IMG/VR virus record: IMGVR_UViG_2814123293_000008 | Coordinates: 1 to 64,000 of that record | DNA length: 64,000 bases | Origin: a virus | Lineage: Duplodnaviria; Caudoviricetes | Direction: 5' to 3' (one strand) | In this document: piece after piece, positions 1,680-3,546 of the stretch | How the letters are laid out: every line of letters begins with the position of its first letter | How positions within the stretch are numbered: the first letter of the stretch is position 1 | Notes under the pieces: generated by a model | Seen by the model: only the letters and a program-made list of their open reading frames with translations | Told to the model about the DNA's origin: nothing | Database searches by the model: none | Translations under genes and position numbers: made by a program

Positions 1680-2138
1680 GTGAATGCCAAGGAATTGATT
1701 GAAGCCTTTGCCAAGCGCCAGCGCGAGGGGCGCTACCCCTGCCCCCGGTGCGGCCGCGACGTCATGGACGAGGAGCCGGCGCGGAATGCCATGAGCCGCC
1801 GGGCTCACGTCTATGTGTGCGACGAATGCGGAACGGTTGAGGCGTTGGAAGATATGCTCCACTCCGTAAAGCTCCCGCTGGAGGAATGGGCTCTGGTGAC
1901 AACCCCGATGCGCTGGGATGTATATTCGGAAAAGCTGGTACTTAGGCATATCGGTCGTGACAACTGGAGCAGACCGGTCTATGAGTGCGGCGGCCGCTTG
2001 TATGTCGACACAGATCCACGAGCCGACAGAAAGCCGGACATCTTCACGAAGCAGGGTAACGCCTTTGATGGAGAGCCGTGCGATCCGCTTCCAGATGGGA
2101 TCGAGGTGGAATTCGTCCCGCACCGGGATACCTGGTAA
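1680..2138 (+). CDS. Zn-ribbon-containing hypothetical protein
   Basis: GTG start after AAGGAGG; CPRC and CDEC pairs; C-terminal GRDNWSRPVY segment. Confidence 0.7.
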   Translation: MNAKELIEAFAKRQREGRYPCPRCGRDVMDEEPARNAMSRRAHVYVCDECGTVEALEDMLHSVKLPLEEWALVTTPMRWDVYSEKLVLRHIGRDNWSRPVYECGGRLYVDTDPRADRKPDIFTKQGNAFDGEPCDPLPDGIEVEFVPHRDTW

Positions 2139-2140
2139 CA

Positions 2141-2200
2141 CCCGCCTGATGATGGCCATCTGGGCACTGGCCGAAACGCCCCTCCCCGGGGCGTCGCGGG
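2141..2200 (+). ncRNA. Type I hammerhead ribozyme
   Basis: Stem I CCCGC(2141-45)/GCGGG(2196-2200); core CUGAUGA(2146-52) plus an extra U; stem II GGCCA/UGGCC; GAAA; stem III ACGCCCC/GGGGCGU; GUC cleavage triplet ending at 2195. Confidence 0.88.
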
Positions 2201-2274
2201 AACCCGTCGGCACAGGGGAGAATCGCCGCCCCTTTTACATACATAACCTTGAGAACAAAATAGAAGGTATGCGT

Positions 2275-2487
2275 ATGAAGCATTACACGAAAAAGGAGTG
2301 GGACAAGATGGTGAAACAGTGCCCAAGCTATTTCGGGAAATGGGAACCAACCCCGTTTAACCTTGGCCGCATAGCGGCCGGAGAATTATCCGCTGAATAC
2401 ATAGGACGCAGAAATATGATGACCTATGAGCCGGAGTCGGGGACGGTTTTACTGACAGAGGGTGTGCATTTCACCATAGAGGAGTGA
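2275..2487 (+). CDS. Hypothetical phage protein
   Basis: ATG after GAAGGT; stop overlaps the next start. Confidence 0.6.
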   Translation: MKHYTKKEWDKMVKQCPSYFGKWEPTPFNLGRIAAGELSAEYIGRRNMMTYEPESGTVLLTEGVHFTIEE

Positions 2488-2813
2488 CGGCAATGAGTAG
2501 AGACTGGACCCCCGCAGAGCTTCAGGACGTCAGTGCCGCTATGGAGTCCCGGGGTGAAATGGGCTATGAGGAATTCTGCCGACATCTGGAACTTTGCACC
2601 AAAAAGGTCGTGGTCGTCCACCTGGACGACGGCGATACCATCACCACCAGAATCCACGGTACTGACGAAGACATCCGTGACTATTACCGGATCGGCTCTA
2701 TGTTAAATATGGGGGCCGGGTACGACAGGCTAGTGGAGGTCGTGGCGGTGGACATCACTGAGTTTCCTGGAAATGCCTTGTGCGCCCCCGTAAACAAGTT
2801 GCAACAGCCGTAA
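2484..2813 (+). CDS. Hypothetical phage protein
   Basis: 109-aa ORF, GTGA overlap with the previous gene. Confidence 0.6.
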   Translation: MTAMSRDWTPAELQDVSAAMESRGEMGYEEFCRHLELCTKKVVVVHLDDGDTITTRIHGTDEDIRDYYRIGSMLNMGAGYDRLVEVVAVDITEFPGNALCAPVNKLQQP

Positions 2814-2892: not shown

Positions 2893-2940
2893 CAAAAAGC
2901 CCCCCTCGCAGGATGCAAAAATCCTGCAAGGGGGGCTTTG
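2893..2940. terminator. Bidirectional intrinsic terminator between convergent accessory and lysis units
   Basis: AAAGCCCCCCT-c-GCAGGAT / ATCCTGC-a-AGGGGGGCTTT hairpin with A-run and T-run flanks. Confidence 0.8.
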
Positions 2941-3273: not shown

Positions 3274-3546
3274 TCAGCCCTCCCTGTCGTCCTTTGGCTT
3301 GTGGTAGGTGAGGGCCTGTGCGCTATCCCCCAGCCCTTTAGTGGTTGGGTCGGTGGTAACACCCACCAGGGCCAGCACGCCAAATACGGCCGTGACCAGG
3401 GCAGTGAGCGCCTGCTGCCAGCTCCCGGCCTCGGCGGTGATGTCCACCCCAAAGAGCTGTGCCATACCCACCGCAAACGCGCCGAGCACGCCGATGAGCC
3501 CTGTCCAGAACGCGGGGCTCTTCAGTCTGACTTTCCAGTTGATCAT
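3274..3546 (-). CDS. Holin (phiLC3-like)
   Basis: MINWKVRLKSPAFW N-terminus, two TM segments, DPTTKGLGDS C-terminus. Confidence 0.88.
   Translation of the reverse strand: MINWKVRLKSPAFWTGLIGVLGAFAVGMAQLFGVDITAEAGSWQQALTALVTAVFGVLALVGVTTDPTTKGLGDSAQALTYHKPKDDREG

Follow-up and report, generated by a model that had tools for sequence, protein, structure and literature searches.

Cleavage by hammerhead ribozymes yields a 5′-OH end. In bacteria and phages these ribozymes are known in thousands, and their function there is still open (Perreault et al. 2011, PMC3088659). That paper reports cleavage of hammerheads next to prophage genes both in vitro and in vivo, and pseudoknots, which have been published for all three hammerhead types, are required for fast cleavage. 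An extra nucleotide between A9 and G10.1 is natural in the plus-strand hammerhead of the chrysanthemum chlorotic mottle viroid (de la Pena and Flores 2001, as cited in PMC3705267). In this viroid hammerhead, which belongs to rolling-circle RNA replication in the plant chloroplast, the extra base is an A and U is the most active variant; a U between A9 and G10.1 raised trans-cleavage 3-4 fold (PMC3705267).

The locus described here lies on the plus strand of a 64,000-nt stretch of DNA (the window). The window covers the initial 64 kb of an IMG/VR provirus from gut Clostridia whose total length is 76,263 nt. Its type I hammerhead shares with the prophage hammerheads of Perreault et al. (PMC3088659) the core, the three-helix junction and the position between small genes of a prophage operon. 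In the published hammerheads a base-paired pseudoknot replaces the loop-loop contacts, and such a pseudoknot is predicted for the window copy. The provirus carries a single copy, whereas relatives resemble the published systems in carrying several per phage (six in L115, seven in L138). In the available part of PMC3088659, neither a conserved module 3′ of the cut nor a link to boxA is mentioned, whereas the family of the window has such a module. With the Rfam family Hammerhead_1 (RF00163) the site has in common an open stem I, closed stems II and III and the same core; it differs by the U inserted behind A9, the 9 nt of loop II, the shortness of stem I (5 bp) and the predicted pseudoknot with the tail. 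The extra unpaired position is the same as in the viroid hammerhead. Prophage hammerheads, pseudoknots and an extra core nucleotide are already published, and the new part of this locus lies 3′ of the cut. An earlier note, made from the sequence of this stretch, had read 2141-2200 as a complete hammerhead. Three features go beyond that note: pairing of loop II with the tail as a pseudoknot, a conserved module on the 3′ side of the cut, and the boxA-like box within it. They suggest a link to transcription elongation besides mRNA stability. The coordinates of all features are collected in Table 1.

Table 1. Features of the hammerhead locus, numbered from the first nucleotide of the window.
Feature	Position	Strand	Description and basis
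Upstream small gene, zinc-ribbon protein, function unknown	1683..2138	+	start uncertain; TAA at 2136-2138; ORF list
Type I hammerhead ribozyme	2141..2200	+	sequence, descriptor scan, model R1, covariation of three helices
Stem I	2141-2145/2196-2200	+	5 bp, perfect
Hammerhead core CUGAUGA	2146-2152	+	unpaired extra U directly 3′ at 2153
Stem II	2154-2158/2168-2172	+	5 bp, perfect; 9-nt loop
G12-A13-A14	2173-2175	+	
Stem III	2176-2182/2188-2194	+	7 bp including A15.1-U16.1, perfect; 5-nt loop
C17	2195	+	predicted cleavage between 2195 and 2196
Tertiary pseudoknot (loop II with tail)	2161-2164 with 2203-2206	+	4 bp, one G-U wobble; by homology with covarying relatives
5′ hairpin of the 3′ product	2196-2199 with 2204-2207	+	4-nt loop; folds, RNAalifold, pair counts, permutation
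Candidate pairing HA	2208-2211 with 2225-2228 (HB loop)	+	99% of cells pair
Hairpin HB	2214-2218 with 2229-2233	+	compensatory changes in 3 of 5 pairs; 98% of cells pair
boxA-like box	2246..2260	+	degenerate positional orthologue of the rRNA-leader-type boxA of relatives; alignments, host leaders, enrichment test
Ribosome-binding site	2263-2268	+	precedes the gene at 2275-2487
First downstream small gene	2275-2487	+	70 aa, no known family
Second downstream small gene	2493..2813	+	106 aa, no known family
GC-rich inverted repeat	2896..2939	.	19-bp stem; terminator scan

The hammerhead at 2141-2200 and its family

The conserved hammerhead core (C3 U4 G5 A6 N7 G8 A9, G12 A13 A14, A15.1-U16.1 and H17) is complete at 2146-2152, 2173-2176, 2194 and 2195; all 11 core bases, the A15.1-U16.1 pair and C17 are intact in the window copy. 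The site reads exactly as the earlier note had it, with the core, the extra U, the perfect stems and a cut after 2195, and the identification as a complete hammerhead is borne out by family-wide covariation and by the match to an independent covariance model. In thermodynamic folding of the window site, which leaves tertiary contacts uncounted, the structure of minimum energy is a different one, and it is favoured over the hammerhead fold by only 1.5 kcal/mol. Since the alternative hairpin of this minimum-energy fold is not conserved in relatives, it was taken as incidental. A reading of stem III as a terminator was also rejected, as no U-run follows the stem.

On either strand of the window, 2141-2200 is the only match of the descriptor scan. 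First-order Markov simulations (n = 100 windows) gave 0.14 loose matches per window and none with stems of at least 5, 5 and 6 bp. The Infernal check with Rfam hammerhead models that the earlier note had proposed came out negative: no Rfam model reports 2141-2200. In the Rfam 15 scan of the window, no hammerhead was found at the gathering score and none at E ≤ 10 on 2050-2300. The gathering threshold of RF00163 (34 bits) is not reached by the site, and over the whole record this model returned only an unrelated 12-bit match elsewhere. Nothing was reported by the Rfam hammerhead models on eight related loci that are rich in family members, and Rfam scanning of the window, of the remaining provirus and of these eight loci turned up neither a hammerhead nor any other family that would cover the 3′ module. 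We built a covariance model, R1, from 36 related phage sequences, from which the window and near-identical copies were left out. R1 scores the window site with 73.4 bits (E 1.7e-21), which is mid-range among the family, while the next best match in the 64 kb reaches 10.6 bits; the site is the single R1 match in the whole provirus.

A pattern search with the core and stem II returned more than 116 viral loci among the matches listed, and 78 distinct sequences among these listed matches can be read as type I hammerheads whose stems I and III vary. The R1 search of 100 sources gave 124 matches, many of them outside the pattern selection, and across these 124 family members all three helices covary. 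Cells of the alignment pair in 93.7% of cases compared with 70.4% after shuffling and 30-49% after sliding, and changes on both sides were found in 15 of 17 pairs, with the observed values reached by none of 500 shuffles; because the alignment is fitted to R1 and part of the family was gathered with a pattern derived from the window, these figures are inflated for stem II, whereas those for stems I and III are unaffected. Nine viral contigs (L070-L078), which carry homologues of the downstream gene with 56-59% protein identity, agree with the window in stem I, in the core and in the extra U. In place of its stem III they have an entirely different helix of 12 bp, and loop II is different as well.

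The family is present in 67 species-representative genomes, mostly of Clostridia (Oscillospiraceae and others), Paenibacillus, Cohnella and Desulfosporosinus; a few are Proteobacteria and Cyanobacteria. The exact stem II and loop of the window had no match in the species-representative genomes. R1 finds several hammerheads per locus, for instance five in L173 besides the six and seven mentioned above. In L115, L138, L173, L140 and L143, 3-7 type I hammerheads lie within a few kb, between nearly every pair of small genes, and none was reported by Rfam at gathering score on these clusters. A large class of type I phage hammerheads is missed by the standard Rfam models and therefore goes unannotated.

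The extra U is found in 108 of the 124 family matches, although most of these were gathered with a pattern that requires a U. Type III hammerheads with the same core, extra U and start of stem II were also observed (L089, L101, L117, L118, L146, L167 and L168); in these, stem I is closed by an upstream loop and stem III is open. The extra U is thus not limited to type I. In a relative with 99% identity to the window (L005:3457-3530), an A-C mismatch interrupts stem I and two inserted nucleotides form a bulge in stem III; its score is 60.8 bits. These defects may reflect relaxed constraint in the window lineage or may be an assembly variant.

Changes in loop II and the tail are matched in relatives. 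Over the family, the complementarity of loop II and tail amounts to 3.75 bp, compared with 3.20 ± 0.06 bp in 500 permutations. The pseudoknot of the window has 4 bp including the wobble, compared with 5 bp in relatives.

Genomic context and the module 3′ of the cut

The plus-strand unit from 1 to 2813 consists of small genes without known function. The gene directly upstream of the ribozyme (1683..2138) has weak Pfam matches to zinc ribbons and a match to phrog_31748 (unknown function). At 2896-2939 the plus-strand small-gene unit meets a minus-strand lysis operon (holin at 3274-3546, endolysin beyond). The inverted repeat at this position scores as a minus-strand terminator; read on the plus strand, its stem is followed by no more than three Us. 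Stem I starts two bases past the upstream TAA. Counted with crude open frames in GC-rich DNA, roughly half of 107 family members have an upstream stop at a distance of 0-5 nt from stem I, and in 22 further members among the 107 an open frame ends in the UGA of the core itself.

Flavonifractor porci P01024 (L442) carries a syntenic copy with the same flanking genes. Its stem II, loop II and stem III loop differ from those of the window, and the changes are compensated or lie in loops. In three other sequences (L003, L004 and L069), homologous flanking genes were found without a ribozyme between them, so the ribozyme is dispensable for these genes. In L165, the hammerhead module is placed directly before a homologue of the second downstream gene. 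Given the ribozyme-free gene pairs and the placement in L165, the ribozyme behaves as a portable cassette. A contig from a gut metatranscriptome (run X5) shares only 2141-2211 with the window, and both of its flanks are unrelated; this fits a cassette that is common to different phages. The metatranscriptome data with the locus consist of assembled contigs, which cannot show RNA ends, and one contig bridges 1500-2923 and spans the cut site. A circular-RNA or retrozyme-like role at this locus was rejected because the provirus has only one copy.

Downstream of the cut, 2196-2262 forms a module that occurred solely next to hammerheads. It was resolved from 24 sequences of viral contigs and bacterial genomes and comprises the 5′ hairpin, hairpin HB, a U-rich/AU-rich spacer and the box. 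Over 2196-2243 the window is identical to the F. porci copy and L165 differs by one base, whereas the coding flanks and the ribozyme loops differ. A covariance model of the 3′ module, R2, was used to search 818 kb. All 27 matches of at least 37 bits follow directly after a hammerhead; of two weak extras, one lies after a Paenibacillus hammerhead and one is doubtful. Two loose DNA patterns for the 3′ module on viral contigs gave mostly chance-like GC-rich matches among those listed, and of these only L343, L383 and L365 were added.

The 5′ hairpin (2196..2207) begins at the very first base of the 3′ product, and its formation is in competition with both stem I and the pseudoknot. That the 3′ product can refold into a 5′ hairpin at the expense of stem I had been suggested in the earlier note, and this view gained support from three sides. 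RNAalifold predicts the hairpin unguided in its consensus, A-U/G-U and C-G/U-A changes show covariation within the subfamily, and over 112 members the complementarity of the new 5′ end to the following 30 nt is 3.98 bp compared with 3.60 ± 0.09 bp, a value above all 300 permutations. The effect is modest, and several subfamilies are without the hairpin.

Hairpin HB and the candidate pairing HA follow downstream of the 5′ hairpin. For HA, one position is altered on both sides in 2 of 24 sequences. The 3′ strands of HA and HB are contiguous, and both pairings have compensatory changes. With contiguous 3′ strands, the two cannot stack as in a classical H-type pseudoknot, and they may represent alternative states or a compact side-by-side fold. 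A terminator reading of HB was discarded in view of its 5-bp stem, its loop of 10-13 nt, a U-run that is not conserved and a silent terminator scan. Pistol, twister, HDV-like, preQ1 and guanidine-III RNAs were considered for 2208-2233; none of them is known to fit, and none was reported by cmscan.

The synthetic insulator RiboJ (Lou et al. 2012) reportedly consists of a hammerhead and a downstream hairpin. The likeness lies in a hammerhead that would strip off the RNA preceding it and in a hairpin that, placed at the fresh 5′ end, would standardise the leader of the next gene; in contrast to RiboJ, the window system is natural and has a predicted pseudoknot and a further conserved box. Family members that lie directly after stop codons, many of them with a hairpin at the new 5′ end, are a natural counterpart of such synthetic ribozyme insulators.

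boxA-like boxes and host rRNA leaders

The boxA of rRNA leaders is a loading site for Nus factors. For B. subtilis a 2026 paper describes a boxA consensus; NusB binds boxA, which is immediately preceded by a small hairpin located at the transcript's 5′ terminus (PMC13753749). The box of the phage relatives resembles this boxA of Gram-positive rRNA leaders. In the 16S leaders of Oscillibacter valericigenes, Flavonifractor porci and Flintibacter muris, we found a hairpin followed by one common conserved box, and the leader of Paenibacillus sp. HW567 has a Bacillus-like form of the box. The boxes of Oscillospiraceae prophages have the Oscillospiraceae form; L105, L180, L343, L440, L460 and L486 carry all 8 of its 8 core bases. 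Paenibacillus prophages as well as the viral sequences L122 and L475 carry the Paenibacillus form (13/14). Altogether, a match of 13/14 to the rRNA-leader box of the host was observed in L122, L431, L458 and L475, and in L431 the match extends beyond these positions. The tracking of the host form is imperfect, as L479 and L487 from Clostridia carry the other form.

Box matches of at least 11/14 were found in 16 of 150 distinct regions downstream of hammerheads, compared with 2 of 150 upstream regions and 1 of 150 on the reverse strand. They cluster 42-48 nt past stem I, or 10-20 nt past it in a compact form. A good box is confined to roughly a tenth of the family. L431 and L124 have the compact form, in which no more than 2-3 nt separate the product's 5′ hairpin from the box, an arrangement as described for the B. 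subtilis rRNA leader. The box of the window keeps 6 of the 8 core bases and, aligned by hand, matches the host 14-mer at 8 of 14 positions, which is background level; the best match of the window in the 14-mer scan (10/14) fell elsewhere than 2246-2260. The window box also overlaps a possible pairing with the ribosome-binding site.

Compared with rRNA leaders and the lambda nut site, relatives share the order of hairpin and box as well as the match to the box of their own host. The 5′ terminus, on the other hand, would come from a ribozyme inside an operon and not from a promoter. A spacer of 13-16 nt between HB and the box is a further difference. No N-like protein partner is known, and the window box is degenerate. 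A subset of the family is fused to a module with a host-like boxA, which leads to the testable hypothesis that self-cleavage is linked to Nus-factor antitermination.

A promoter reading of the TTGA-type box was rejected, as no -10 element was seen at 16-18 nt in the relatives that were inspected by eye; the start codon of the window's downstream gene follows the box at a distance of about 15-30 nt. Several other arrangements were noted around the boxes. About 30 nt past the box, a further conserved GC-rich hairpin-like motif that starts with CUGCCGGG is common to L085:11921-12005(-), L157:1887-1971(+) and L446. The order ribozyme, hairpin, box and second ribozyme with a different stem II was observed in L180:7984-8052(-), L438 and L445. 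In the 16S leader of Flintibacter muris (L503:61-80), CUGAUGA occurs in the loop of the hairpin that precedes the rRNA boxA, which is probably a coincidence.

Proposed mechanism and alternative explanations

We propose that the ribozyme folds during transcription of the operon, some 3 nt past the stop codon of the upstream gene, and that its cut falls between C2195 and G2196. Stem I is open and an additional U follows A9; the fold would be held by the pseudoknot of loop II with the tail. The upstream mRNA would retain stems II and III, with a 2′,3′-cyclic phosphate at its 3′ end, and the downstream mRNA would begin with a 5′-OH at G2196. The 5-bp stem I would then dissociate, and the new 5′ end would pair with 2204-2207 into the flush hairpin, which is predicted to block re-ligation and to shield the end from 5′ exonuclease. 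The downstream RNA would continue with the conserved hairpin (2214-2233) and the box (2246-2260). The cut would in this way make an internal site of the operon resemble the start of an rRNA transcript, with a 5′ hairpin followed by boxA. In the family, and perhaps in the window, the new leader would present boxA to host Nus factors, and upon their loading the downstream genes would gain stability and read-through properties of their own.

The motif, its place in the family, the covariation and the strict tie of the 3′ module to hammerheads are shown; cleavage of the window copy, protection of the new end and loading of Nus factors are inferred. Cutting of the operon mRNA by the window ribozyme would agree with the published prophage hammerheads (PMC3088659). 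Binding of NusB/S10 at the box and read-through of terminators may be expected by analogy with PMC13753749. Taken as a whole, a functional type I hammerhead with a protected 5′ leader and a boxA/Nus-loading mechanism is the best explanation of the locus and, in our view, a probable one. A more specific form of this explanation is a two-part device for ‘operon punctuation’, with hammerheads of this phage class as its front half. The cut would create the hairpin and a host-type boxA, NusB/S10 would load and transcription of the downstream genes would become resistant to termination, with the RNA freed from upstream ribosomes, Rho and decay. We put this device forward tentatively, as one possibility.

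It is also conceivable that the hammerhead is real and cleaves, and that the 3′ module is a leader for mRNA stability or translation only, with no role for Nus factors. The 5′ hairpin and HB would then protect the 5′-OH end, and the box of the window would be an anti-Shine-Dalgarno sequence that gates the gene at 2275. The minimum-energy fold of the product indeed pairs 2238-2250 with 2264-2277 and covers the ribosome-binding site and the start codon, the potential for this pairing is kept in the window, L165 and L442, and the window box is degenerate. However, the box of distant relatives is far from any ribosome-binding site, in several relatives it precedes other structures or a second hammerhead, and the match to the host leader exceeds the anti-Shine-Dalgarno core in L122, L431, L458 and L475. 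A leader of this kind appears unlikely. The opposite effect on the downstream mRNA was considered as well. Collins et al. 2007 reportedly observed that the 5′-OH end of the glmS ribozyme product is a preferred entry for RNase J1 in Bacillota. The host of the provirus belongs to Bacillota and hammerhead cleavage gives a 5′-OH, so that cleavage might destabilise the downstream mRNA and turn down 2275-2813 relative to the upstream genes. Against this, the product has a conserved hairpin from its first base, which is a known block to 5′ exonucleases, and conservation is stronger in the module than in the genes beside it, as would be expected sooner of a leader that protects or has a function. Such a destabilising cut seems quite improbable to us.

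Two further explanations concern the status of the window copy itself. It could be a decaying copy of a phage hammerhead cassette that is no longer active. The single copy in the provirus, a pseudoknot that is weaker than in relatives, the degenerate box and the near-identical L005 with its stem I mismatch and stem III insertion point in this direction. Yet the 11 core bases, A15.1-U16.1 and C17 are intact, the three stems are perfect, the R1 score is mid-range for the family and the differences to the syntenic F. porci copy are only compensated or in loops, and we regard decay as very improbable. A chance match in GC-rich intergenic DNA, for which the missing Rfam match could be cited, has a practically negligible probability: with E 1.7e-21 from an independent model, no comparable match in any simulated window and conservation of the site with covariation at homologous positions, the score and the covariation rule it out.

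With the functional hammerhead and its boxA-bearing leader as the preferred explanation, the punctuation device would, if true, give bacterial hammerheads the concrete job that has been missing since 2011. Within a literature coverage that is incomplete and in which co-mentions were judged by titles, no paper linking natural hammerheads with boxA or antitermination was found; in one co-mentioning paper, an engineered hammerhead was used purely as a tool. The syntenic copy of F. porci P01024 exists in a cultured lysogen.
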